Shown here: piece after piece, positions 2,400 through 25,634 of the stretch
How the letters are laid out: each line of letters opens with the position of its first letter
How positions within the stretch are numbered: the stretch's first letter is position 1
DNA from: Selaginella moellendorffii
Taxonomy: Eukaryota > Plantae > Lycopodiophyta
Reading direction: 5' to 3'
Assembly: GCF_000143415.4 (NCBI RefSeq)
Contig: NW_003314496.1
Coordinates: 4,226 to 29,859 of the forward strand
DNA: 25,634 nt
Translations under genes and position numbers: made by a program
Notes under the pieces: model-generated
The model's input: the letters and a program-made list of their open reading frames with translations, nothing else
Databases searched by the model: none
What the model was told of the DNA's origin: nothing

Positions 2400-5300
2400 C
2401 AGAGAGACCCCAGCTCCGCTGGGAGATATAGCATACCTAAGATAAATAAATCTTCTTTTCTAATTTTATTATATACAAGGTTAAATTTATCAGATGCATT
2501 ATAATTTATTATCAGATAAATGATCAAAAAAATTATCAGATAAATGATAAATGATAAATCATAGACGAGTTATAATATAGTGATATAAAATTTACATTGT
2601 GAGTTCCAAGGAAGAATGGTGGATTATATGCAACCAAAAAGAATGACTCACTAGATGATACAAAAAAGTTTAAATAAAGGAAAAAGGTTTTTAAACAAGA
2701 GTTTTTGCAATTAGTTAAAGGTCTTAGGATACTTAGGGTTAAGTATATTTAGGTTTGAGTAGTATTTATATATAATTTATTGTATTAATGTTCTAAATTT
2801 TTTTTGTATTTTTAGATTAATAATATTTTGGTTTAGATTATATCTTTAAATAAATCTAAATTATAAACTGAAAGTATCTATAAATTAGTTATATATTAAT
2901 GTGTTACCAAATTTCAAGTTATAATTCTGTTGTGAATATACAAGTGACAATAGAAATGATGAATAACATGCATTATTCCCCCTTTCAATTATATTTTGAG
3001 ACTCTTGGTAGAGAAGCTCTCATATCCAAAGCTTGATTTTAGAGCTTGATATAGTTTATCTCTGGGAGATATAGCATACCCAAGATAAATAAATCTTCTT
3101 TTTATAAATTTACAATTTTAGAAATTTGGATTTTATATAAAGTTCGATTTATCTAAAATTTTCTGCTATTCATCTCTAAAGAAATGCACAATAATGCAAA
3201 TAGATAATAATGCAAGTGTTGGGGAAGATAAGATCATTTTTAATCATCAATAAATTTGAATTTGATGTTTCATTGCCTTTATAAAAAAGGTGCACAACCC
3301 TAAACACACATGCAGGATTTTTGCCTTGCTTGAAAAGCACTTGACTTTTCACAAAACAAAAAAATCATAGACTACCAAAAACAAAATAGCTTAGTTTGGA
3401 GAAATTTTAATTTTAATTGCATACTGAGTTAAATTATTTTTATCTGAACTATAATGATGCCTCTAACATTCATATTTTACTAAAGAATAATAGAATTTCT
3501 ATTATCTGTGGTTTTATATTTTTAAACATACATAAATAAATGTATCTAGCTTGCTACCATATTTATATTAAACCTCATAAGCCAACAGTGGAGAATAGTT
3601 TACATTCTAGATTCTAAATCAGACTAATATTCTTTTATCTTCATCCAAATATAATAATTACATCAGAGATATAATGTTTGTATTAAGACAAATCTGTATT
3701 AAATCTTAATGATAAAACTATGAATTCATGTCTCATATATGACATGGTATCTAATATGGTATAAGATATCTCATACACATACAAATATCAAATCCATTTC
3801 TTAATAATATCTAAAAATTTAACAAAGTCTTTTATGTTTTTAATTAGTCTTCTTGCTCATAACCTTACTTTAATCTACCAGCAGCTTTACATGAGTTTTA
3901 TCTTTTGCCTCAATATTGACACGATGATTTATTTGCTATAGTTAAACCATATGGTTTACATAAGTCTTTTGATCTTGCTCTAGATTTGTTCTGCATATGT
4001 ATTATCTCAATTGCTATCAGAACATAAGGAAAATATCTTGTTAGTTCAAAATGGTAAATTAAGTATTTAAAAGAATAAAAGTTAATGGTTTCTTGATAGA
4101 GAAAAATTATATGTCACATTTATGAAAAACATACAACTCCTCTGGGAATATATAGAAATAATATTTTTTAAAATACTTTTATTAGCTGTTTTATAAAATA
4201 AAAATTATTAATACACCAACATGCTCTACCAATAAATCAAGAGTGTGTAAGACATTTTGTACCTATTAAGTCCTCTATTTTCAATTATAATATAAGATAT
4301 TGTTATAGACACTAATTTTTTATATTCTATTTTAATATATTTTTTTTTCAATTAAATGTTTTCAAAAAAGTATATATAATTAAATCTCCATAATTACATA
4401 GCATGTTTTTTGTTTATGTTCTTTTTATATTTGTATTTGACATCCTCCCCATTCATAATATTTATATTTATACATTTAGGAGTACTAATTAAAAGTTAAA
4501 GTATTTTATTATTTATCATTATCATTGTTTATGGATATAGTTTAATATAAAAAGAATGCTAATATGAATTAAGTTTATTATCTCTAAAGCTTCTTTTTTT
4601 AAATTTAAATTTATTGCATTTAACAATGTTATTGAGACTAAAATGTTTCAATGAAAAGTAAGGTTATACTTGGATATTAGGGTATTGATGATATATAATC
4701 ATTTATGTCCTAAACCATAACATATCAGAAAATTTAAGAATGTTTCATAGATGTAATTTAATAATATTAAGAGTTTAGGAATCACATTTTTTAGATGGTT
4801 TCCTTTTGTATTGTGTCTAATGTTGTCTCAATCATATTTTTTTCTATACGTCATTATATTTATTTATTTTTTCAATGTATCAAAGAACACATTATTAGTC
4901 TTAAAAAACGTATTATAACTTTATGATTTTACACAGATCTTAGAGTATATATGAGCTAACCAACAACTCTATGTGAATAGATTAATTGATGAATCTGTAA
5001 TAAGTATCATAAGATTATTCATAAAATTAAACCTACTTTATAAGATAAAATAATAAGTAAATGTATCTAGATATTCACACTATATTATAGGTGTTTGAAA
5101 AGAGGTACATCCAAATATAATAATTATATTGGAGATATAATGTTTGTATTAGGACAAACCAGTACTAATGCTTTATGATAAAACTATGCATTCCAATTTA
5201 AAAATACATTACTATTAAATGATTCAACACTACTTACTATTGAAAAACTATATAAACGGACACATTATTACATTCTTAAAATATATTATAAAAATATTAA

Positions 5301-6128: not shown

Positions 6129-7052
6129 TTGGAGTTGAGGTGGGAATATGTTGATATTGTAAATGGACTTAGCATATATAACAAAAGCACCACAAGGGAT
6201 TCTATCGAAGCAGCCAGTTGTGTATTCACATGCAGCATCTTTACGTGAGAGGTGGCCTTTACAAGGAGGTATCTGACACTCATATTTAAATTCTATTGTA
6301 TTCTTTGTTCTCAAATCAAGCTTTGATCTAATGTATCTGGTGCTGGTTGTGTAGGTGAAGGCCGCATTGATTGCTGCCTTTAAGAAACTCAAAGGTGGAG
6401 ATCCTCGCCAAGATGACACGTCCATCAGGCCCATGATATCCAAGTCGTCGGCAGCTATAGTGGAGAAGAGCGTGAACGAGGCAGTGAAGGCAGGTGCCAA
6501 ACTTCTAGTTGGTAGTAAGCAAAGGGGAGCTTTCATGGAGCCAACGATCCTGGAAGACGCTCCCTTTGACACAGATGCAAGGAAGGAAGAGATTCTTGGT
6601 CCCGTGATCCTTCTCTACTCATACAAGTAAGCTCTCAAAGTTTCTTAGCTCCTAAAGTTCTTATTTACTCTTTTTTCTCTCTCTAAACTAAAACGGTGGT
6701 GACACAGTGATTTCAAGGAAGCCGTGAAGGAAGCTAACAGCATGCATTACGGTCTCCAAGCCAGCGCCTTTATGCATGATCTAAACAAGGCTTTCTATGT
6801 GTTTGAGCACATAGAGGTAGCTTTGTGTTTGAGATATAGAAAGTATTGATTGTTTGTTTGATGATTATTCGATCTTCACAAGCTGGAGGAGTTTGCCTCA
6901 ATGATTCGCCAAGCATGCGCGTTGATAGCCAGCCATACGGTGGGATCAAAGACTCTGCAATCCAACAAGAGGGTGTCAAGTACACGATGGACGACATGCT
7001 CGAAACCAAAGTTTTAGTAATGCGCAATGTAGGCAACGCGTCTTACTTTTGA
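6129..7052 (+). pseudogene. Aldehyde dehydrogenase (ALDH21-like) 3' half, copy 2; exons ~6129-6268, 6355-6626, 6708-6816, 6882-7052
   Basis: Frameshifted LEL-GGN (TTG GAG TTG A GGT GGG AAT, 6129-6147) and degenerate catalytic-Cys region GFYRSSQLCIHMQHLYV, then GDPRQDDTSIRPMIS...EPTIL...EEILGPV, YGLQAS and PYGGIKDS. GT-AG introns at 6269-6354 and 6627-6707. Same CAA acceptor defect at 6881 as in copy 1. Confidence 0.88.
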
Positions 7053-7126
7053 TCAAGCTCGAGCTCGAGCTTTTGAGAACAGTAAATACAGTCTATCCAC
7101 AAATGATTGCCGAGTTGTCCTCGTTT

Positions 7127-9608
7127 GCTAGCTCGCTCTCTAGCACCATCAACCTTTTACCTTTAGGACAGAGAATGCTTGTCTATAAGCTCCTGGGAGA
7201 AGGTCCATAGCTTGTGAGCGAGCTCGGGATCTCTGCCATAAGCGCTACAGCTGGATTTGTTGGAATCCACGAAGTATTGCCCAGTGACGTCCTTGAGGCT
7301 TGGATGTAAAGCCATGTAGCACGTCGTAGCAGCGTCCTGAGAGATCGATCACGTATTAGCCACGAAAAACTTCCAGATAATTGGGAGAATTCTTCTTACC
7401 TGTGGCATATTTTTCCAAAGGAAGCTGGAGAAGAACTTGAGAACCCCTGCATGAAGATCAAAGGTCCATAAGTAACCAAAAGCTCACTCGCTCTTTAGCA
7501 CCATCAACCTTTTACCTTTAGGACAGAGAATGCTTGTCTATAAGCTCCTGGGAGAAGGTCCATAGCTTGTGAGCGAGCTCGGGATCTCTGCCATAAGCAC
7601 TACAGTTGGATTTGTTGAAATCCACGAAGTATTGCCCGGTGACGTCCTTGAGGCTTGGACGTAAAGCCGTGTAGCACGTCGTAGCAGCGTCCTGAGAGAT
7701 CAATCACGTTTTAGTCATGAAAAACTTCCAGATGATTGGGAGAATTCTTCTTACCTGTGGCACATTTTTCCAAAGGAAGCTGGAGAAGAACTTGAGAACC
7801 CCTGCATGAAGATCAAAGGTCCATAAGTAACCGAAAGCTCACTCGCTCTTTAGCACCATCAACCTTTTACCTTTAGGACGGAGAACGCTTGTCTATAAGC
7901 TCCTGGGAGAAGGTCCATAGCTTGTGAGCGAGCTCGGGATCTCTGCCATAAGCGCTACAGCTGGATTTGTTGGAATCCACGAAGTATTGCCCGGTGACAT
8001 CCTTGAGGCTTGGATGTAAAGCCGTGTAGCACGTCGTAGCAGCGTCCTGAGAGATCAATCACGTTTAGTCACGAAAAACTTCCAGATAATTGGCAGAATT
8101 CTTCATACCTGTGGCACATTTTTCCAAAGGAAGCTGGAGAAGAATTTGAGAACCCCTGCATGAAGATCAAAGGTCCATAAGTAACCAAAAGCTCACTTGC
8201 TCTTTAGCACCATCAACCTTTTACCTTTAGGACGGAGAACGCTTGTCTATAAGCTCCTGGGAGAAGGTCCATAGCTTGTGAGCGAGCTCGGGATCTCTGC
8301 CATAAGCGCTACAGCTGGATTTGTTGGAATCCACGAAGTATTGCCCGGTGACATCCTTGAGGCTTGGATGTAAAGCCGTGTAGCACGTCGTAGCAGCGTC
8401 CTGAGAGATCAATCACGTTTAGTCACGAAAAACTTCCAGATAATTGGCAGAATTCTTCATACCTGTGGCACATTTTTCCAAAGGAAGCTGGAGAAGAATT
8501 TGAGAACCCCTGCATGAAGATCAAAGGTCCATAAGTAACCAAAAGCTCACTTGCTCTTTAGCACCATCAACCTTTTACCTTTAGGACGGAGAACGCTTGT
8601 CTATAAGCTCCTGGGAGAAGGTCCATAGCTTGTGAGCGAGCTCGGGATCTCTGCCATAAGCGCTACAGCTGGATTTGTTGGAATCCACGAAGTATTGCCC
8701 GGTGACGTCCTTGAGGCTTGGATGTAAAGCCATGTAGCACGTTGTAGCAGCGTCCTGAGAGATTGATCACGTATTAGCCACAAAAAACTTCCAGATAATT
8801 GGGAGAATTCTTCTTACCTGTGGCACATTTTTCCAAAGGAAGCTGGAGAAGAACCTGAGAACCCCTGCATGAAGATCAAAGGGCCATAAGTAACCGAAAG
8901 CTCACTCGCTCTTTAGCACCATCAACCTTTTACCTTTAGGACGGAGAACACTTGTCTATAAGCTCCTGGGAGAAGGTCCATAGCTTGTGAGTGAGCTCGG
9001 GATCTCTGCCATAAGCGCTACAGCTGGATTTGTTGGAATCCACGAAGTATTGCCCGGTGACGTCCTTGAGGCTTGGATGTAAAGCCGTGTAGCACGTCGT
9101 AGCAGCGCCCTGAGAGATCAATCACGTATTAGTCACGAAAAACTTCCAGATAATTGGGAGAATTCTTCTTACCTGTGGCACATTTTTCCAAAGGAAGCTG
9201 GAGAAGAACTTGAGAACCCCTGCATGAAGATCAAAGGGCCATAAGTAACCGAAAGTTCACTCGTTCTTTAGTACCATCAACCTTTAACCTTTAGGACGGA
9301 GAACGCTGTCTATAAGCTCCTGAGAGAAGGTCCATAGCTTGTGAGCGAGCTCGGGATCTCTGCCATAAGCGCTACAGCTGGATTTGTTGGAATCCACGAA
9401 GTATTTCCCGGTGACGTCCTTGAGGCTTGGATGTAAAGCCGTGTAGCACGTCGTAGCAGCGCCCTGAGAGATCAATCACGTATTAGTCACGAAAAACTTC
9501 CAGATAATTGGGAGAATTCTTCTTACCTGTGGCACATTTTTCCAAAGGAAGCTGGAGAAGAACTTGAGAAACCCTGCATGAAGATCAAAGTTCCATAAGT
9601 AACCGAAA
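7127..9608 (-). repeat. Tandem array of 7 x ~355-bp SDR terminal-exon units
   Basis: Stop-codon positions recur at 7163, 7518, 7873, 8227, 8581, 8936 and 9291. The ORF track shows the repeated peptide (D/G)AATTCYTALHPSLKDVTGQYFVD. Confidence 0.95.
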
Positions 9609-10134: not shown

Positions 10135-10618
10135 CTAGAGGTTCACAACTCGCTGGTGGCTTGTGAACAGCCATAATAACCGTTTCTTAAACCTAAAACC
10201 AAGCTCTTTGCCACCATGTCACAATCCTCACCATTGCTTTGGAGCGTCACAGATCTGGATCGTTGAATCAAGAGCATCTGCCATAAGAAAAAATGGATAT
10301 TCTAAAAATGGAATATGTGACGCCGATGCCAAAATAGCAACTTTAAATAAAGAGTTTGACTAGAAGAGACCCCAGCTCTGCTGGGAGATATATCATACCC
10401 AAGATAAATAGGTCTTCTTTTTCTAATTTTATTGTATACAAAGTTAAATTTATCAGATGCATTATAATTTATTATCAGGTAAATGATAAATCAGAAATCA
10501 TAGATGAATTCTCAATAAAAAATTTAGTTATAATTCTATTGTTGTGAATATTCAAGTGACAATAGAAATGATGACTAACATATATTATTCCCCCTTTCAA
10601 TTATATTCTGAGGCTCTC

Positions 10619-11766
10619 TGTAAGGAACCAACTCGCCGAGGTGTCGTAGGCTAAGGGAACCCCGAAAGCATGACCAAAATGACAAAGAGTTCATCGGATG
10701 GGACCAAGTCAAAGATCGAGTCCAAGACCGACTCTAGGACCGAGTTCGAGATAGAGTCCGGAATCGAGTCCAAGACCGACTCGGGGACCAAGTTCGAGTC
10801 CGAGTTCGAGACCGAGTTCGAGACGGAGTCCGAGATCCGAAATCGGGTCCGAGACCGAGTCCGAAGTCGAGTCCGAGGTCGGGCCCGAGATCGGGTCCGA
10901 GATCGAGTCCGCGATCGAGTCCGAGACCGAATCCGAAGTCGGATCCGAAATCGGATCCGAGATCGAGCCAGAGACTAAGTCCAAATACTAATACGGGTCA
11001 AGGGGTGAAAGCCCAAAGCGTGCGTCCCCCAGGGGGGGGGGGCTGCAGGGGGTTCCAAAAGTATAGTAGGGATAGTGAGGTCCAGGAACCAGTTTTGAAG
11101 GGACTCTCCAGTTGGGCTTCCAAACCGACTTGAGGTTGGGACTGGGACTAAGGGGCCTTGGGTGGGAGTGAGCATGGACTTGGCTGGTGCCGGAGGGGCC
11201 ATCCAAGGAAGTGCTCAAGAGCAGCTCCCACTCCCGAAAGGGAAACCGATTGCGGTGCTCCCGGCTCATGTGGAGTGGTGCCCCACTTGAGTACCATGCG
11301 GCTCATTGGTCCTCGCCCTTCCTAGGGGCTTGGGCCTTCCTTCGGGATGGAAGTGGGGGGCGAGAGGTACCCATACCGGGCCGTTAGGCCACGGTGTTTC
11401 GCCCCGGCGTCCCGAAGCAAGTGTTGCACTCAAGACTTGGGATTTAGAGGGTCCCATGATCAAGTCTTGTGGTACCAAGGGATGTTAGGAACCTGGAAGC
11501 TTGGTGTGCTTGGCTGCTTGTGCTTGCGGGGAGTGTAGCCGAACCTTAAGTCCAGTCTAACCCGGGGAGGGGGATTGGGAGTGATTTGGGAATCCGTGGA
11601 AGGATGGCTAACACTCCGTTGCTCGTGCAGTGAGTAGCTGAAACCAAGTAGGAGCTGGTACCATAGGCGAGAACCTTGGCAAGGGAACTTAGCAAAAGCC
11701 AAGGCAGTGTTGGACGGATAGACGAGGTAAGCTGGCAAATTGGAAAGGAAAAATTTGTGGCTTACA
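10619..11766 (+). repeat. 5' LTR
   Basis: Direct repeat of 17003-18150 (offset 6384). Only four substitutions found by eye (10790, 11383, 11423, 11638), all transitions. Confidence 0.97.
10712..10976 (+). repeat. Degenerate hexamer array (GAGTCC/GAGACC/GAGATC/GAGTTC variants) inside the LTR; second copy ~17096-17360
   Basis: 6-bp periodicity is visible directly and produces the low-complexity ES/RD-rich spurious ORFs. Confidence 0.9.
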
Positions 11767-11769
11767 ATT

Positions 11770-11781
11770 TGGTATCGGAGC
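11770..11781 (+). promoter_or_regulatory. Primer binding site for initiator tRNA-Met
   Basis: TGGTATCGGAGC, 3 nt after the LTR end; one mismatch to the canonical plant TGGTATCAGAGC. Confidence 0.92.
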
Positions 11782-14700
11782 CTTTTCCTCAGTTCTAGCG
11801 AAGGATAGAGGCGGATTGCTGGGAGATGGCAAGGGCAGGGCGTAAGCGAACCCAGGCGGAGACGGAACCTCTGCCAGAGCTGGAGCCTCCGGTCGAACAA
11901 GAGGCTATGGATGAGGAATCTTTGCATGAGGAGGACTCCAGTGAGGAAACCTCCAAACAGGAGTCCGGTGGCGAGGTTTGGTCGTCCAAGGCTCGATTGG
12001 ACGTGCTAGAAGGACAGTTGGCACAGACCAATGCCCTGCTGTAAACTCTCGTACGCAAGCTAAAGCGTGACGAGAGGCGGAAGAAAAAGAAAAAGACTGC
12101 GGATGCTGGCAGCGCAGAAGGTGCGGATCTTTCGGCCGGGACTGAGGCAAAACCAGACAAGGTCGAACAGACCGAAGTGGAATCAGTCCCTCAGGCAGTT
12201 CCCAAGTACAAACCAAAGCCCCCACCGGTCTTCAAGGGAGTGAATGACTATAAGGTGGTGGAGGATTGGTTTTACGATATGGAGGACTACTTCCGAGCGT
12301 TGCGGTTACCAAGCTCGGAGAAGGTCCCATGTGCAAAACCATACTTGGCAGATAATGCCAAGTCTTGGTGGAGAACAACGGAGGCCAACGAAGGACCGGT
12401 GGTCACTTGGGACATGATGAAGGCGAGGATCCGCGCAACATATGTTCCTCCGAATGCCACTCTGCATCTGAGGGATGAACTGAGTAGGCTGAAACAGACA
12501 GGAACCATCCAGGAATATGTGAATGGGTTCATGGCAAAGAGGATACTTGTCACGGACATGGGGGATATGGATGCGTTCCATGCCTTCATATCAGGTTTGC
12601 AAACCTGGGCTCGCGGCGAGGTGATGAGGTGGAACCCGACCAACTACAAGGAAGCGTTGGATGCGGCCATCAAGGTGCATTTCAACGATAACCTGCGAAA
12701 GGGGAACACGACGGGGTCGGGATCCACATTTAGCAAAGGGGCCAAACCAAAGGGAACGTATAGCAAGGGGAAATTCAAAAGGAGTTTCTCTAAGAATGAG
12801 TCCTCGGGGTTCCGGAAAGGCAAATCCGGTGGCCAGCGAGCGAGTACTTGGGGGAGTCAAGCGAAAAAGGACAAACCCACGGATAAGAAGGTCAAGTCGT
12901 ATAGCAGTGTGGGAAACAACGTATGCTACAACTGCGGCGAAGCGGGACACTTCTCGAGGGAATGTCCCTACCCGAAGAAGGCCAGAGCCAATATGGCCAT
13001 CAAGTCGGGTGAAGTCCAAACTGAGGTATGTGATCCAGTCCCTAACTCAAAGTTACTCATTACACGAGCAACTTTGGTAGAGAGTCGTTCGCGACATCTA
13101 CTAGCCCTCCGAGGGAAGCTCGGAGGTAGCTTTGTTAAGATCCTTATTGACACGGGTGCTTCGGATAATTTTGTGGCTGCAGACATAGTCCGGCAAGCCG
13201 GACTAACGGTGCAGCGGCTAGGCGAACCAAGGACTATAGAGTTTGTTCAGGGTAGCCAAAGCACCGATGAGGTACTTCGACAAGCGAGAGTCGAAGTGGG
13301 GACATGGAAAGTGGACATGGATTTCACCGTCTTGGATATGGCGGGATTTGACGTGATCTTCGGAATGGATTGGTTTAATTGGTTCGTGGTAGCGCTGCAT
13401 GGACAAGGTAGGAACCTTGTGGTATTGGCGAATGCCCAAGGAAGAAGATCTAGGGTGGAGGCCCAGGATCTAAAGGTAGGGCAAAGCAAGGCCAAAGAGT
13501 CATGCTTGAACCTGGTGTCCACGAGAGGACAACTCACTAAAGGAACTAAGGCAGCCTTTTTGTGCTTACTCTCGGTGAAGAGTGACAAAAAGACAAGAAC
13601 GGAAGAAGTGCCTTTAGTGATCCAGCGAGTGTTGGACCAATTCCAGGATACCATGCCGGAGGAGCTACCGGCGGGGTTGCCCCCCGCACGACCGATAGAA
13701 CATAAGATTGAGCTTGTCGAGGGCGCTGAGGCGGTGGTTCGTCCCCCCTATCGTTTGAACGAAAAAGAACTCAAGGAGCTCAAGTGCCAACTAGAGGAGT
13801 TGGTGGGCAAAGGGTATGTTAGGTTGAGCAAGTCGCCGTATGGGGCGCCGGTATTATTTGTGAAAAAGAAAGATGGATCTATGCGCATGTGCATAGATTA
13901 CCGGTTGCTCAACAAGTATACCAAGAAGAACAAGTACCCGTTGCCAAGGATTGAGGACTTGTTCGATAGGTTGGGAAAGGCAAAATACTTCTCGAGGATT
14001 GACCTAAGGTCAGGATACTACCAGATCAGGGTAGCCGAGGAAGATGTCGAGAAGACAACCTGTCGAACGAGGTATGGGAGCTTTGAGTTTTTGGTGATGC
14101 CCTTTGGGCTGTGCAATGCGCCGGCAACGTTTTCGGCGTTGATGAACCACGTCTTTGTACCCTATCTGGATCACTTTGTGGTCGTCTATATTGACGACAT
14201 CCTGATCTATAGCGAGACGCTAGAGGAGCATGCCGAACACTTGGCGAAGGTGTTTGAGAAACTAAGGGAACATAAACTGTATGCTAAAGAGAGCAAATGT
14301 GACTTTGCTCAGCAAGAGGTAAAGTTTCTCGGGCATGTGGTGGGCCAGGACGGGCTCAAGGTGGACCCGGAGAAGGTCCAAGCGATCCAGGAATGGGAGC
14401 GACCATCGAATGTACATGAGTTGAGGGCGTTCTTGGGGCTATGCAACTACTATCGAAAGTTTATCAGACACTATTCGAGAGTAGCCCTGCCCTTAACGGA
14501 TCAAACGGGAAAAGGGAAGATGGTATGGACAGCGGAATGCGAGGCGGCATTCGTCCACCTCAAAGGGAAGTTGAGGAAGGCTCCGGTGTTGGCATTACTG
14601 GACTTTGGTAAGGACTTTGAGGTAGACACGGATGCTTCGGACTTTGCGTTAGGCGCAGTTTTGAAGCAAGACAACCATCCAGTAGCGTTCTTCTCGAAGA

Positions 14701-15699
14701 AGCTGGACAAGGCTCAACGGAAGTGGCCTGCCCACGAGAAGGAATTGTTTGCGGTGGTCAAGGCGCTCAAGGAGTGGCGACACTACCTTGGGAGACACTT
14801 CAAGGTTTACACGGACAATGTGGCAGCGAAACACTTCTTGTCACAACCCGACCTGAGAGGGAAACAAGGTCGGTGGGCCAATGCCTTGGCCGAGTTTGAT
14901 TGCGAGATTCTGTACAAGCCTGGGAAGAGCAACATCGTGGCAGATGCGCTAAGTCGAAAAGCGAGCTTGAGGTTGGCGATCTCCAGCGCAACAGCAACCT
15001 TCTGGGACGATGTGCGGACAGCATATGAGAACGATGGTCTAGCACAAGAAGTGTTGTTGAGGAATCTGGAGGCACGGGAAGCTCACCAGAGAGGTGAGCC
15101 GCCAACGGAAGAGAAAACGGGCTATGCGGAACGCAATGGACTCATTTATTACAAGCAAACGAGGGTGTATGTTCCAGAAGGTGGACTAAGGAAGGTAGCC
15201 TTAGAAGAGTGTCATGACGGACCTCTTGCGGGACACGGCGGAGTGCCCAAGACAATGGGCTTACTCAAGAGGAAGTACCATTGGCCAGATATGGCTAAGG
15301 ACGTCCAAGACTATGTAAAGACATGTCCAACATGTCAGCAGGTCAAAGCCGTGACTAAGGCTAGTGGGGGCTTGTTGCAAAGCATCCCAATTCCAGATCG
15401 TCCGTGGAAATGTCTCACGATGGACTTCATCACGGGACTACCCCCAAGCGAGGGGTTCGATGCGATATTCGTGGTGGTGGACCGATTTTCGAAGATGGCA
15501 CATTTCATACCCACCACAACGGAGGTGGATGCGGAAGGTGTGGCGAAACTGTTCTTCGAACAAGTGGTTCGAGTGCGGGGAAGGCCAGAGGAGATTATCT
15601 CAGATCGAGATAAGATCTTCACTAGTAGGTTCTAGAGGACCCTCCTGGAACAGTATCGCACCAAGTTGAAATTCAGCACAGCCTATCACCCACAGACAG

Positions 15700-15746
15700 G
15701 TATGGGGTATTAAGTCAAGTTTGGTGGTCCTAACACTTCTTGACAG
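15700..15746 (+). other. 47-bp GT-AG intron in the integrase catalytic core
   Basis: CAG|GTATGG...CCTAAC...TTGACAG|AC. Removal gives AYHPQTDGQTERVN and exactly 35 residues between the second D and E of DDE. Confidence 0.85.
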
Positions 15747-16164
15747 ACGGACAAACGGAAAGGGTGAATAGGCAGCTGGAGGATTATTTGCGATGCTATG
15801 TCTCGGGAGACCAGACCGATTGGGTAAGTCATTTGGGACTTGCGGAAATGTGTTATAACAACTCACCACATTCGAGTATCGGGGTGAGTCCATGGGAAGT
15901 CATCAATGGGCGAGCTATTGAAGGTCCTGTGGAACTCGGCGTGGCCGAGTATCATGGAGAGTTACCCGCAGTGGAGGCATTCACGGCGGAAAGACTCAAC
16001 ATTTGGAATCTAGTGAGGGATTCCTTGGAACGGGCTCAACAAAGGCAAACCAAGTACGCGAACCTAAAGCGCTGGGACGTAGAGTTCCAAGCTGGGGAGA
16101 AGGTGTGGCTGAACACCAAGAACCTTAGGCTACCAAGTGGGATCAGCCGAAAGTTGACCCAAAG

Positions 16165-16216
16165 GTAAAAATGCATGTATTCCTGTAAATGAATTGATCT
16201 TGAGTTCCTTAAGCAG
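16165..16216 (+). other. 52-bp GT-AG intron just before the integrase GPY/F motif
   Basis: AAG|GTAAAA...TTGAT...CCTTAAGCAG|GT, AT-rich. Removal joins KLTQ-R-FAGPYEIEARIGKVAYRL in frame. Confidence 0.85.
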
Positions 16217-16990
16217 GTTCGCGGGGCCTTACGAGATTGAGGCACGAATCGGTAAAGTGGCTTACCGACTCCAACTTCCTCGAGAGATGGGGAAGATGCA
16301 CCCAGTGTTCCATGTGAACTTACTCAAGCCGTACTTTGAGGATCCGCTTCGCAAAGACCAAGTAAGACCTTTACCTGAGGTTATCCAAGGGGAAGAGGAA
16401 TACGAAGTCGAGGCCATCCTCAATGCGCGCAAGAGCAAGCGACAAGGACGCGAGGTGAGAGAGTTCCATGTGAAGTGGAAAGGATTTCCACACTGCGAAG
16501 CAACATGGGAACCGGAGGAGAACCTAGCGAATGCGCGAGATCTAGTGGAGGAATTTCTGCAAGGCAGAACTCTATGTACTTATGCAAAGTTCAATTAAAA
16601 ATATCAATTTGCAAAGTTGAGCAAGTGGCATATGTTGGGACCCGAAGGCGCGCCAAAGGTGAGCTAATTAGCATGGGTTAGCTAGGTCGACCAGGCGTAG
16701 GGAGCTACGCCCGACTCCCTGCGGGGATGTCGAAACCATAGACGTATTCTACAGAGGTTGGGTTCGAGTCCCAACCCCCTAGTAAAGCAAGGCTGGGTTC
16801 AAGTCCCGACCCCATACTAGGGCGTGGTGAGGGGAGGAGTATAGGGACACCTATATTCCGTTGTCATGAGCTCTTGGCCGGGGAGGCTAACTTAGGCACA
16901 CCGCTAAGTGGGGGGATGCCCCCGGAGACATGGTCAACAAGTCGTAGGATAAAAAAGAGACGTTCGATGTGGGCATCGAACTTCTTCTAT

Positions 16991-17002
16991 GGGTGGTGGA
17001 GT
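16991..17002 (+). promoter_or_regulatory. Polypurine tract
   Basis: G-rich GGGTGGTGGAGT immediately before the 3' LTR TG. Confidence 0.75.
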
Positions 17003-18150
17003 TGTAAGGAACCAACTCGCCGAGGTGTCGTAGGCTAAGGGAACCCCGAAAGCATGACCAAAATGACAAAGAGTTCATCGGATGGGACCAAGTCAAAGAT
17101 CGAGTCCAAGACCGACTCTAGGACCGAGTTCGAGATAGAGTCCGGAATCGAGTCCAAGACCGACTCGGGGACCGAGTTCGAGTCCGAGTTCGAGACCGAG
17201 TTCGAGACGGAGTCCGAGATCCGAAATCGGGTCCGAGACCGAGTCCGAAGTCGAGTCCGAGGTCGGGCCCGAGATCGGGTCCGAGATCGAGTCCGCGATC
17301 GAGTCCGAGACCGAATCCGAAGTCGGATCCGAAATCGGATCCGAGATCGAGCCAGAGACTAAGTCCAAATACTAATACGGGTCAAGGGGTGAAAGCCCAA
17401 AGCGTGCGTCCCCCAGGGGGGGGGGGCTGCAGGGGGTTCCAAAAGTATAGTAGGGATAGTGAGGTCCAGGAACCAGTTTTGAAGGGACTCTCCAGTTGGG
17501 CTTCCAAACCGACTTGAGGTTGGGACTGGGACTAAGGGGCCTTGGGTGGGAGTGAGCATGGACTTGGCTGGTGCCGGAGGGGCCATCCAAGGAAGTGCTC
17601 AAGAGCAGCTCCCACTCCCGAAAGGGAAACCGATTGCGGTGCTCCCGGCTCATGTGGAGTGGTGCCCCACTTGAGTACCATGCGGCTCATTGGTCCTCGC
17701 CCTTCCTAGGGGCTTGGGCCTTCCTTCGGGATGGAAGTGGGGGGCGAGAGGTACCCATACCGGGCCATTAGGCCACGGTGTTTCGCCCCGGCGTCCCGAA
17801 GCAAGTATTGCACTCAAGACTTGGGATTTAGAGGGTCCCATGATCAAGTCTTGTGGTACCAAGGGATGTTAGGAACCTGGAAGCTTGGTGTGCTTGGCTG
17901 CTTGTGCTTGCGGGGAGTGTAGCCGAACCTTAAGTCCAGTCTAACCCGGGGAGGGGGATTGGGAGTGATTTGGGAATCCGTGGAAGGATGGCTAACACTC
18001 CGTTGCTCGTGCAGTGAGTAGTTGAAACCAAGTAGGAGCTGGTACCATAGGCGAGAACCTTGGCAAGGGAACTTAGCAAAAGCCAAGGCAGTGTTGGACG
18101 GATAGACGAGGTAAGCTGGCAAATTGGAAAGGAAAAATTTGTGGCTTACA
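17003..18150 (+). repeat. 3' LTR
   Basis: TGTAAG...CTTACA followed by the TSD CTCTC. Confidence 0.97.
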
Positions 18151-18155
18151 CTCTC

Positions 18156-19380: not shown

Positions 19381-19994
19381 TAGCTTTGGTAGGTGTTAGT
19401 TCTGTTTAGATCATCATGCAACGATGCTGTTTCTTATTGATAAGTATTTTTGGTTTTCTTTTCTGTTTTGTATTCAAGCAAACATAGCAATAGCACAATA
19501 GAATAGAGATTCTTGTATGTGCAAGTCACTCTTTTTTTCTGTTTTACTGTTTTCTGCCTGCATGTTTCCTTTTGAATGTTTTAAGCGTTTTTAGGACTGT
19601 GATCTAGAACAACATATAGATTTTTTTGTTTTTTACCTAATACCTTTACGAGAGAGAGCAAAACACTAAATATAATCAAACACGGAAATCATTTCTATGC
19701 CCTGAGTTAATGTACAAATATCATGTACTGAATCAAACCAAGCTCATGGCTTCAAAGGTGTGTCTATAAACACGTACATACACAACAGTTGTCTTATTCC
19801 TTCAGAAATGGCTTTTTTAAAAACAGTTCATGGCTTTGTCTGTAAGAAAGTAGAGTAGGCTGCCAATGTAGAGCTCCAATCCTTGTTCTCCACCACCTCA
19901 GCTGCCATGTACTTTGCTGTTGTGATATCTCCTAAAGGTGCTGATCACCACTTTCTCGCACATGTTTAGCTTGGAAAGAATGTTGCTCATCAAC

Positions 19995-21130
19995 TCTATT
20001 GTGTGTGGAACAAGATGGAATTCGAGGACACTTGTGCATTAGCTTTAATGTTGGAGAGCATGTTCCGTGGTGGTTTAATGCAGATTTTACTAGATAGTGG
20101 GAGCGATAACAACTTTTTTTTAGCAAAGTTTGTTGAAAAGCATGACCTAGTGACACAAGGAGTTCTTCCATGCATGGTGGAAGGTGTAGCTACCCCTATG
20201 GAGCATTTCAATGCTTATGTAAAGGGGCTGAAAGTGTTGGTTGGCAAAATTACACTTATAGAGACTTTTTATTTTGTAAATACCTATTGTGTGGATTTCA
20301 TTCTTGGGATGCCATTGGTGAATATGGAGTCAAAGATAAAGTGGAGTATTAAATATGTTCCATTGGGGTTTGGTGACATTATAAATGTGTGGTTTGGAGA
20401 GGGAATTCAGCCTCGAATTGTTATGCTCTCCATGACATCTTTGAAGTAAGCTTGTCATAATAGAAAAACACTTTTGAGTTACTTTTTGTTTGTTCTAGAC
20501 CAAAGCATGTGTGGGGGAGAGGCAAGTAAGTATTTGTTTGATGCCCTGGTCTTACTTGTGAAGAAAGACTGTTCAATGTAGATGTTTTATTGACTACTAT
20601 GCCTTGAACAAAAAGACAATTAAGGATAAGATAAGCGTGTTTCATTAGAATACAATGGCGTTAAAGATGTGTGGTTTGGAGAGGGAGTTCAACTTTCAAT
20701 TGTTATGCTTTTCACTACATTTTTGAAGTGGGTTTGTTGTAATGGAAAAATATTTTTGAGTTACTTACTGTTTGTTTTTTACTTTGGGGGATCAAGGCAC
20801 GTATGGGGGAGAAGCAGTAGTATGGGATGTACTCAACGAATTTTTTAATATTTTTCCATCTAAACTTCCTCATGGGTTGCCTCCATTATAAGGTGTGGAG
20901 CATGGGATTACGTTAGAGCTAGGGACGCAGCCAATTTACCGACATCCATTTCGGTTAAGTTATGCAGAGGAGCAAGAAGTTCAACGACAGGTCAAAGAGT
21001 TACTTGAGTTTAGATTTATTCAGTAAGTCTTTGTTTGGTGCTTCAGTCTTGCTTGTGAAGAAGAAAGATGGTTCAATGTAGATATGTATTGACTACCATG
21101 CCTTGAACAAGAAGACAGTGATGGATAAAA
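19995..21130 (+). mobile_element. Decayed Ty3/gypsy fragment (aspartic protease and start of RT), internally duplicated
   Basis: ILLDSGSDNNF...DFILGMP in ORF 20003-20449. GLPP..VEHGITLELGTQPIYRHPFRLS and [21 protein letters not shown] at 20875-21120, with stops. 20385-20520 is repeated at 20665-20815. Confidence 0.8.
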
Positions 21131-21719
21131 TGTTGATGCTGCATGTGAATGATAATATACCTTCTCAATCATATGATGATGTCCCACATGCCTACTTAGA
21201 ATAGGAAAATCTTGGTAGGTATGGAGAAAGCATGGAAATAGATCAAAGGCACCATCAATTGTAAATGATTATTAAAATCTATCCCCACAAAATAAGGAAG
21301 GTCATCCTCAAGGTGATATTAAAAATATAAATGCCAACATGGCAAGTCATCAGCAAGTGATGTAGAACTTTCAAACCTATTTCAAAGCCTTTGGATCCAT
21401 AGCTCAACCTTTGAGCCTCATGAACCTCGTCAAGGTAAATCTTACTCTGCATCTTGTGGACACTATACATCAAGTATAACAACCTTTGACAGCACAGAAT
21501 CCTTATTGAAAAAATCTAGAATAACAGGCTCATTAGAAACATGATAAAAGAGCAAAGAAGGAAGAGGAGCTTGACTTGAGGCATAGTCTAGCTCCCACTT
21601 GTGTGTGTGTCCTTGTTCTATGTCTGTCTTGGGTCTAAGCTTAAGTTTCATTCCATGCTAGTTGGTGGAGTACCCATAGCCAACCAACCTGAGGCATAGT
21701 CTAGCTCCTGCTTGCAAGA

Positions 21720-21960
21720 AATAGTGTTAGCAGTAGCCATAGAACTTCCTGGGTTATGAACAACCTCGAAATCATAATCTAAAACTTTAAATCCCACTAA
21801 GCAATACCAACTAAGTTCTTTCGCTCCAATAACAAAGTAACCGCAGCATGATCACCTTTTAGTAACATCCGAGAACCATGCAAATATGCATAAAGGTTCT
21901 CAAAACCCCAAATTATTGCTAAACACTCTTCTGTTGCGGAGTAGTTCACCTTTGACAAAT
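21720..21960 (-). mobile_element. Decayed Ty3/gypsy RNase H fragment
   Basis: NYSATEECLAIIWGFENLYAYLHG...GDHAA then YDFEVVHNPGSS.ATANTIS, resembling the NYS.TE.E.LA..W...YL.G...TDH motif. Confidence 0.75.
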
Positions 21961-22250
21961 TTATGGTTCTCAAGTTCTTTACTCGAAAGTGTGTGAATAT
22001 GCAGTACTTTTTATGCAAGGTGTTATGATCCGGAGCAAAAAGACAACGATCTAGTCTCCCTAGAGTACGCTAAACCACCTCTTGAAGTTTCTCACCACCC
22101 AACCACCCTTGAGCTACCTTAAAAGTTCCATTACATCACTGCTCTACTATGAGCCCTAAGGTTGGTTAAGTTCCTTACCATAACATGCTTTAATATACCC
22201 TTTAGCTTCCCTTTGACTGACATTGACCACATGGTCAAATTTGGCACCTA

Positions 22251-23068
22251 ACAATTCTTCCCCCAACAAAATCCTTGTCCCAAGGACTAGTTGTACTAGT
22301 GATCACCCTTTCTAGGGAACCCTAATTAAGCTTTTGATCCATCTTCTACAGCTATATACATTAAGGAGGCATTGGGCCCTTCACTTTGAGATAGTACACC
22401 TTTCAATTGGTTGATATAAAATACTAGATGACAATATCAGGTGCCTATTGACAGTTGCATTGGATAAGCCACCTTACCAATGCACTCCAGCACTTCATAT
22501 AGACCAACATATTGATAAGAAATTTTATCACTCTTCCCATTTCACAAAGGCACTAAAGTGTTTTGCCACTCACTTGACAGAAAGATCATTTGCATAAAGA
22601 CGAGATCACCCACCTTATATGAATGCTAGTAAATTGGCTGTGTCTCTGGTTCTAACATAATCCCAAGCTCCACATCTCATAATGGAGGCAACCCTTAAGG
22701 AAATTCAAATGAAAAAACATTGAAAAACTCATCGAGTACATCATATACTACTGCTTCTCCCCCCCACATGCTTTGGTCCCCTAAGTCATGAATAAATAGC
22801 AAGTAACTCAAAAGTGCTTTTCCATAACCTGCTTCAATAATATAGTGGAGAGTATAATAACTAGAGGTAGAACTCCTTCTCTAAACCACACATCTTTAAT
22901 GCCACCATACTTTAGCAAGACATGCTTAATACTCCATTTTATCTTTGGATCCACCTTCATTAACTATGACATCCCAAGAATGAAATTCATGGGAGATAAA
23001 AAGTCGCTCTACAAGTATGGTTTTGCCAACTAACACTTCTAACCCCTTTACACAAGTATTGAAATGCT
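22251..23068 (-). mobile_element. Decayed, internally deleted Ty3/gypsy (protease/RT leader fused to integrase end, PPT and probable 3' LTR start)
   Basis: 22660-23068 is the reverse complement of a relative of 20200-20910. GLYEVLECIGKVAY (GPY-like) at ~22465-22505. Minus-strand GGGGGAAGAAT followed by TGTTAG at 22253. Confidence 0.7.
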
Positions 23069-24400: not shown

Positions 24401-25598
24401 TCACGCCTCCTCTGATTCAGATTCGGATTGTTCACCTTGAAATAAAATACATTAGAAACTTAGTAAAGGAATATTCATGAATCTCACCTTGAACCCGGGT
24501 TATGAATGCTCTTGCTACATCTCTTGCATGGTCTGGCAAGGTGATGGTGGCACTCTGCTTCCGCATCCAACCATGCACAACATTATCCACCGATATGCTC
24601 ATGCTGGGATCCCTTGGATTCAGCACCCATCTCTTTTCTAGGCAATCGTTCGTATATCCGGAACTTGGCTTGAACCACTCCACAGTTACATTGAAGGAGT
24701 TAGTTTCTGCGTCCTCCTCTGCATCAGTGATGCAGCGCCCCACCCATATCATTTGTTTTTTATTACTGGGTCTGACAAGCACGACCATTCCTTTGCAGAC
24801 CTGTACTGGATTGAATGCTGAATCCGGCTTCTTGTTCCTCGGCCCACAATAGTGATCCTCAACATCGTTATCTGTCACTGCATTTCCAGAGGACATTGTT
24901 CCGCTACTATCTGGTGCTCTGGGTTCTGGCCAAAAGGACTCTTCCAATTCTTCATATACAACCGGCCCATTTTGGATAGCAGATATAATCTTCTCCCAGT
25001 ATTCGAGCAAAGGTTTGCACCTCTGAAAATAGGATTCTCCACCAAACACCAACCCCCTCTTCCAGAAGGCAATATGCTATCTAATCCCGGCCACTATACT
25101 TTCCTGGTCTTTGAGTCCATCCGGGTGCATCGGCCGTGGGGAACCCTGAGGAATCATAGGTTCCCCAGTTATGGGATCTCTCTTGAAGAGTTCAATGCCG
25201 TCCACTGGCAGCCACACTGTGTCCCATTCTCTCATCTTGTACCTCATCACTGGAGCACCGTCACACATGCTGAAATGAAACTGAAGAGGCTTGGAGTGGC
25301 CAATCAGCGTTTCGGATCCGTCCCTGATGTAGCCTCTTACAAACCCCTTAAAGTCTGGAACCTCTGTTAAAAGTGCAGCTTCAACAGTGCCTTTGATGCA
25401 ATTTTGGAATTCATCGTAGAGTTGTGGGAGGGTGAGGACATTGGATCGCCGGAGGGACTCTGCCAGGTGACTGAACATGGCATCGACGTCTTCATGAGTG
25501 TGCCCAACCATGAGAAAGCCAAGTGTAACCGTTTCAAATATGCCTTTGGCAACAAGCATCGCCAAGTACGCGAAGACGTACATGTTTTTGTTCTCACT
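24401..25598 (-). pseudogene. DNA transposase-like gene (Sola-type DDD / 'GHTHEDxD' family), C-terminal part, one nonsense codon, terminal 52-bp intron (24436-24487)
   Basis: ENKNMYVFAYLAMLVAKGIFETVTLGFLMVGHTHEDVDAMFS motif. ORFs 25077-25583 and 24432-25052 are in the same frame across one TAG. CAAG|GTGAGA...CTAAT...TTTCAAG|GT leads to a final exon GEQSESESEEA*. Superfamily assignment is from motif memory only. Confidence 0.65.
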
Positions 25599-25634
25599 GG
25601 ATCGTAGTAGTTGCGGGTCTTTGCTAATGTACTA

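Follow-up and report, generated by a model that had tools for sequence, protein, structure and literature searches.

Retrotransposition is classically demonstrated by the loss of introns, yet several elements have been described in which splicing is part of the life cycle. In the Ty1/copia elements BARE1 and EVADE/copia, alternative splicing of an intron located where gag and protease meet yields a Gag-only RNA, and the unspliced RNA encodes the whole polyprotein (PMC3735527, PMC12786077, PMC7197481). The BARE1 intron is 104 nt long and its removal leaves a nearly full-length RNA; it was also reported that BARE has three RNA pools and that packaging is confined to the unspliced RNA, which is uncapped and non-polyadenylated and begins at a second start site (PMC3735527). 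Ogre, a Ty3/gypsy element outside the chromoviruses, keeps in its DNA one intron of ~270 bp at the border of the protease and reverse transcriptase (RT) domains, which must be removed for full Pol (PMC6317226, PMC4408406). In foamy viruses, which are retroviruses, the major splice donor lies within the LTR, upstream of the primer binding site (PBS), and Pol is expressed from a spliced mRNA distinct from the genomic RNA; this splicing skips gag to reach pol, and integrase introns are not described for them (PMC5035957). In Cer1/CERV of C. elegans (PMC10309623) and in Penelope-like elements, which are not LTR elements and have a conserved intron in the 5′ UTR (PMC8557442), several splice sites or introns are carried through retrotransposition. 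The genome RNA of Cer1 encodes Gag-Pol, splicing gives an accessory protein, and the unspliced RNA is exported via a dedicated protein (PMC10309623). In a 2025 review, Ogre and EVADE are the only plant LTR elements named as having functional introns (PMC12786077).

The described family most similar to the locus considered here is SM1-Galahad, which is present in hundreds of copies of ~95% identity with no intact copy reported and has a consensus of 7.5 kb (Novikov et al. 2012, PMC3350952). This consensus, published without introns, has LTRs of 1076/1146 bp, a poly-G tract of 11-25, and a 13-bp tRNA-Met PBS. Its three ORFs measure 3885 bp (1295 aa, without the chromodomain), 316 bp, and 309 bp, and it is the shortest of them that encodes the chromodomain, whereas the sister family SM2-Galahad has a single ORF of 4731 bp (1577 aa) (PMC3350952). 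The strings "intron" and "splic" do not occur in the main text of that paper, nor do "intron" or "Galahad" in the text, as distinct from the figures, of its supplement, and neither of the two papers found to name Galahad together with Selaginella describes introns in it.

The window, that is, the whole stretch of DNA analysed (25,634 nt of Selaginella moellendorffii), contains a copy of a Ty3/gypsy chromovirus of 7532 bp at 10619-18150, all features of which are on the + strand. It is flanked by a 5-bp duplication of the target site (TSD), CTCTC, at 10614-10618 and 18151-18155. The 5′ LTR (10619-11766) and the 3′ LTR (17003-18150) are each 1148 bp long; the LTRs begin with TG and end with CA, and the 5′ one has 12-nt tandem repeats and a G11 tract at 11032. 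A 13-nt PBS of the tRNA-Met type, which we take to be a match to that tRNA, is located at 11770-11782, and a purine-rich tract at 16989-17002, upstream of the 3′ LTR, is the candidate polypurine tract (PPT). The element thus has the chromovirus hallmarks of TG..CA LTRs, TSD, PBS, and PPT. The near identity of the LTRs, put at about four differences by the original prediction, was confirmed at exactly 4 differences over 1148 sites, together with the TSD. At substitution rates between 1.3e-8 and 6.5e-9 per site and year, which are not specific to Selaginella, an insertion age of 0.13-0.27 million years was obtained, and ~9 substitutions are expected in the interior of the element since insertion. 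No TATA[AT] motif was found in the LTR, so no transcription start is claimed, and an Rfam search returned no matches.

Pfam domains occur in the order Gag, zinc knuckle, protease, RT, RNase H, integrase zinc finger, and integrase core, with the SH3-like domain and the chromodomain in a separate downstream piece. The order Gag-PR-RT-RH-IN is therefore present by Pfam, and the Ty1/copia order was not found. The gag region (capsid and CCHC knuckle; PF03732, PF19259, PF00098) spans 11826-13025. The rest of the protease, RT, RNase H, and the integrase zinc finger and core, up to four codons before the catalytic E, occupy 13183-15699 (Pfam); the integrase exon with the catalytic E is at 15747-16164, as placed by tblastn of relatives, and the last exon, with the SH3-like integrase C-terminus and the chromodomain (PF24626, PF00385), at 16217-16598. 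PR, RT, and RH form one open frame, and an intron of the Ogre type between PR and RT is absent. Two in-frame stops, at 12042 in gag and 15633 in integrase, were overlooked in the first reading; because of them, the present copy is dead under any splicing.

Integrase is interrupted by two short segments. I2 (15700-15746; 47 nt, phase 1, GT..AG, with a CTAAC motif) is located within the D,D35E core, between the second D and the E, and I3 (16165-16216; 52 nt, phase 2, GT..AG, 33% GC) just upstream of the GPY motif. All six relatives aligned by tblastn gave three colinear blocks in frames +3/+2/+3, with breaks at 15698/15734 and ~16165/16215. Removal of I2 restores HPQT-D-GQTE, and only then are there exactly 35 residues from the second D to the E; removal of I3 lets the reading frame continue through the GPY motif to the chromodomain (PF00385, E 1.3e-16), which is in frame only once both segments are removed. 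With both removed, a frame of 1557 codons is obtained, in which the sole stops are the two private ones of this copy. On an RNA retaining I2, translation would terminate at 15711, short of the catalytic E, and on one retaining I3 alone, at 16166. The claim that these two GT-AG inserts must be removed for integrase is thus well supported by the joining of the three homologous blocks, and both are skipped in sequenced contigs, as described below. A 5-nt direct repeat, GACAG, borders I2 (15695-15699 and 15742-15746) and has the same length as the TSD of the element; it could reflect an origin of the intron by insertion or repair, or chance, as it extends three letters beyond the AG. A self-regenerating intron arising by exon copy was considered and rejected, the border repeats being just 5 nt (I2), 4 nt (I3), and 2 nt (I0 and I1).

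At the border of Gag and protease, an intron of 55 nt (13026-13080) had been predicted. Its joint was not seen; the donor at 13026 is used, but with an acceptor at 13182, which gives I1, an intron of 157 nt (13026-13182, GT..AG) with the protease DTG at 13149 inside it. I1 is an alternative intron, because the segment is coding when kept. When it is removed, the joint reads GEVQTE, T, stop, so that Gag ends one codon past the joint, 401 codons from the ATG; it is hence a gag/protease alternative intron with a stop right after Gag, similar to the short-Gag splicing of copia-type elements (BARE1, EVADE). The acceptor at 13080 could be used in a minor form, which would likewise end Gag.

The splice sites predicted around the PBS were found as stated: I0 (11727-11792; 66 nt, GT..AG) has its donor in the LTR, removes the PBS together with the 40 terminal nt of the LTR, and is skipped exactly in a sequenced contig. 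Within 11760-11792, I0 has a branch-like CTTAC that shares bases with the LTR terminus, and the PBS lies between this CTTAC and the pyrimidine tract and acceptor. It might be speculated that binding of the primer or of Gag could compete with recognition of the I0 3′ splice site. The I0 donor is repeated at 18111 in the 3′ LTR, where it has no acceptor within the element; this donor could splice into flanking host sequence.

Donors were scored against the U1 consensus, and the branch and pyrimidine-tract motifs were likewise judged by their consensus forms. On this basis the segments have U2-type spliceosomal features, namely GT..AG ends, a branch-like motif, and a pyrimidine-rich 3′ end; three of the four donors rank in the top 5 of 314 GT sites. 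The I0 donor scores 7/9 and the I3 donor 6/9. The introns have 33-48% GC vs 51-53% in the coding sequence. At these intron lengths, GT..AG is read by chance at 36/5153, 52/5148, 64/5134, and 59/5043 positions of the element (~1 in 100 each), and all four would be expected at ~1e-8 if the product is taken under an assumption of independence. It had been claimed that all four inserts measure 47-66 nt and belong to the size class of host introns. The first part holds for 47, 52, and 66 nt but not for the Gag-border intron (157 nt); for the second, the three host introns measured (3/3), all in the aldehyde dehydrogenase fragment of the window, are 86, 81, and 65 nt, a similar class although slightly longer.

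Evidence of splicing was sought in four of the 24 sequencing runs listed: X15, a set of contigs of 25.8 Mb whose RNA status is the guess of the tool, and X22, X23, and X24, in each of which ~12% of the raw reads were scanned. Four X15 contigs matched the element and three of them carry joints, all four listed joints being GT..AG. The joint 11727-11792 (skipping 66 nt) is on a contig with a depth of 7.86 and the joint 13026-13182 (skipping 157 nt) on one with 7.73, while 15700-15746 and 16165-16216 are both skipped on the same contig of 2500 nt (depth 11.2); these contigs do not phase the junctions on single molecules, and the depth is low. Intron sequence is absent from all X15 contigs. A form that keeps I1 was likewise not found among them (depth 1.69 in that bin; contigs drop rare forms), nor was the Gag-Pol class, with I1 kept and I2 and I3 removed, or the unspliced class.

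X15 is probably RNA, because the joints remove the LTR end with the PBS and the protease DTG, which are indispensable to a working DNA copy, and because intron sequence would be expected in any DNA library when the family has hundreds of copies that bear the introns. The source of the contigs differs from the present copy in 42/1041, 52/1080, and 83/2500 letters (3-5%). In the RT, 20 of the 23 codons with differences are silent vs 36% expected (P 6e-7; 25 coding differences displayed, with 149 further rows outside the test), and therefore the X15 source and the present copy appear to be separate replicating lineages that diverged under selection on RT.

In X22, an RNA run from a separate study, one raw read in sense orientation skips 15700-15746. 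None of the junctions is covered in X23 or X24, and X22 has slight coverage near I3 without a joint. The four junctions originally proposed were thus recovered in part: all four donors are used in the X15 contigs, with the RNA status of that run guessed, and a raw read supports I2 only (n = 1), but the acceptor at 13080 was not recovered. All three raw-read runs are nearly silent inside the element. Their 64, 24, and 38 mapped reads (X22, X23, and X24, respectively) are mainly in the LTR at 11235-11591, on the sense strand, and their loose ends are identical at either side; because of these loose ends, they are assigned to another locus, where an LTR fragment of this family is within another transcript. 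A few X22 reads are antisense over 15824-16225 and 16628-17002 (integrase and the 3′ region).

With regard to the family, the present copy agrees with the description of SM1-Galahad in its length of 7532 bp, LTR of 1148 bp, G11 tract, 13-nt PBS, and Selaginella host, and it is likely a member, the assignment being made by the published description. The frame that opens with the ATG at 11826 and closes with the I2 stop at 15711 is 3885 nt, or 1295 codons, long (read past the two private stops); a second one runs from the ATG at 15848 to the I3 stop at 16166 (318 nt), and a third from the ATG at 16287 to 16596 (309 nt). The middle ORF does not match exactly, being published as 316 bp and "113 aa" vs 318 bp and 103 aa here. 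Since the published ORF of 3885 bp ends at the stop inside I2, the consensus appears to keep I2 and I3, and the inserts would thus be family-wide, as far as the ORF lengths in one paper tell. The proposal that they are a family feature and not private to this copy has accordingly gained support.

The motif at the I2 site is contiguous in 226 of 270 distant relatives and that at the I3 site in 160 of 270 (strict patterns; nine host proteins left out). Intron positions common to distant relatives were not supported: two of the 270 proteins start no more than eight residues from the I2 site, and of the 16 listed with an end close to I3, most continue through the motif. I2 and I3 were probably gained in the SM1-Galahad lineage, as this is simpler when SM2-Galahad and the distant relatives are uninterrupted there. 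Among proteins, no family member was detected, the best identity being 56% in the 120 matches listed of 1074 and 50% in the 150 listed of 10262; Gag had no matches at E 1e-8 among 1287 candidates, and an exact look-up of the ORFs of the window returned 0/7. The closest clusters examined include green-algal ones, and eight aligned relatives are 35-53% identical over RT-integrase. In searches for family DNA, one weak locus (36%) was found in metagenomes and none in prokaryote genomes or viral contigs.

Each ingredient of this arrangement has a precedent, that is, Gag-only splicing, an intron required to be removed for Pol, an LTR donor with a separate pol mRNA, and retained introns. The element resembles BARE1 and EVADE in its Gag-only splice, but its unspliced RNA lacks a complete integrase and it has an extra intron over the PBS. 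As in Ogre, an intron in the polyprotein gene must be removed for full Pol and is kept in DNA, but here there are two micro-introns in integrase, one of them within the catalytic triad. The LTR donor upstream of the PBS and the separation of Pol mRNA from the genome recall foamy viruses, and the carriage of several introns recalls Cer1/CERV and Penelope-like elements, although no accessory gene as in Cer1 was seen in the element. In a full-text search of open-access papers, there was no report of introns in the integrase core or of all four in one element; what is added here to the published SM1-Galahad is the set of introns with their joints and the Gag-only splice.

Taken together, the element is a recent but dead copy, probably of SM1-Galahad, and its four GT-AG segments are skipped in contigs from a run that is probably RNA; it is likely that in this family the fully unspliced pool serves as genome and the spliced RNAs as mRNA. 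We infer three RNA classes, for the genome, Gag-Pol, and Gag. Removal of I0 would delete the LTR end and PBS, so that the RNA could not be primed; removal of I1 would yield Gag only, as in BARE1 and EVADE; and the full Gag-Pol of 1557 codons would be made only when I1 is kept and I2 and I3 are removed, because on RNA with I2 still present translation would halt short of the catalytic E. The genome RNA would keep all four introns and could not encode a complete integrase, which therefore would always reach it in trans. The PBS intron guards only itself and cannot alone explain how the three downstream introns survive reverse transcription. Escape from splicing would likely have to be nearly all-or-none, because an RNA that kept I0 and I1 but was spliced at I2 and I3 would give rise to a family of intact copies without introns, none of which has been reported among the hundreds of copies. 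It would most likely depend on a separate, never-processed class of transcript, such as the uncapped TATA1 RNA of BARE, which is the nearest precedent, or else on capture and export before splicing. We lean, with modest confidence, towards the fuller reading of a splicing-gated LTR retrotransposon, in which micro-introns of host type were gained in the catalytic core of integrase and over the primer site, genome and messenger are mutually exclusive RNAs, as RNA open to priming would make no integrase and the mRNA for integrase would not be open to priming, and the introns were carried through hundreds of retrotranspositions by all-or-none escape.

Other explanations have to be weighed against this gated model. 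The spread of the intron-bearing form as DNA, by segmental duplication or LTR gene conversion, or the origin of the X15 contigs from a processed DNA pseudogene, would fit the segmental duplications in the window and the guessed RNA status of X15; it is very improbable in view of the 5-bp TSD, the 4/1148 LTR differences, the occurrence of the flanking repeat elsewhere in the window without the element, the raw RNA read that skips I2, and the hundreds of copies at ~95% identity (PMC3350952). A hidden intronless master lineage might instead make integrase and be the source of the contig free of I2 and I3, which would also mobilise the intron-bearing copies in trans, so that regulation by splicing would be limited to I0 and I1. 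The difference of 3-5% between the contig source and the present copy and the continuous ORF of SM2-Galahad are compatible with such a master, but we regard it as unlikely, as none of the hundreds of copies is reported to be intact and the consensus frame is interrupted at the two sites (PMC3350952), and as I2 and I3 have GT..AG ends, branch-like motifs, low GC, and exact frame repair, which for random disabling inserts would be met in ~1 in 10,000 (product of two rates).

Splicing could also be leaky and independent at each intron with no dedicated genome pool, PBS loss removing some RNAs, and intronless progeny disappearing through selection, through silencing, or because a packaging signal within an intron has gone. 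This is the known mode in Ogre (PMC6317226) and in the TATA2 RNA of BARE1 (PMC3735527); the I3 donor scores only 6/9, and the special transcript class is a postulate of the gated model. On the other hand, spliced forms dominate X15, in which no contig bears an intron, and leaky splicing should soon yield autonomous intact copies without I2 and I3, of which none has been reported (PMC3350952); it is judged doubtful, to the same degree as the intronless master.

Under the gated model, four introns in 4.5 kb, two of them obligatory for integrase, would constitute a natural reporter for the choice between genome and mRNA in LTR elements. Each genomic copy would record which introns its template had kept and could be counted from public assemblies and long reads, and comparison with the intronless sister family would give a dated intron gain. 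The model would also explain why a high-copy young family has been recorded without an intact member, and ORF-based screens would miss similar families.

Several features are found in the neighbourhood of the element. The aldehyde dehydrogenase fragment near it gave nine matches, all (9/9) to Selaginella moellendorffii proteins of 80-88% identity. A tandem array of 355-bp units in 10 copies, without an Rfam match, is located behind each of two aldehyde dehydrogenase fragments (560-1624 and 7127-9608), and the segment 1-1624 is duplicated at 6568-8190 (97%). A second copy (~90%) of the repeat at the insertion site is present, without the element, at 2928-3249. A degenerate Ty3-like remnant of protease and RT occupies 19970-23068, with an inverted partner 1.7-2.7 kb away at 72-79% identity. 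On the minus strand at 24432-25631 there are two open frames, one of which matches DUF7869 (PF25273, E 8.6e-34) and is possibly a transposon gene.
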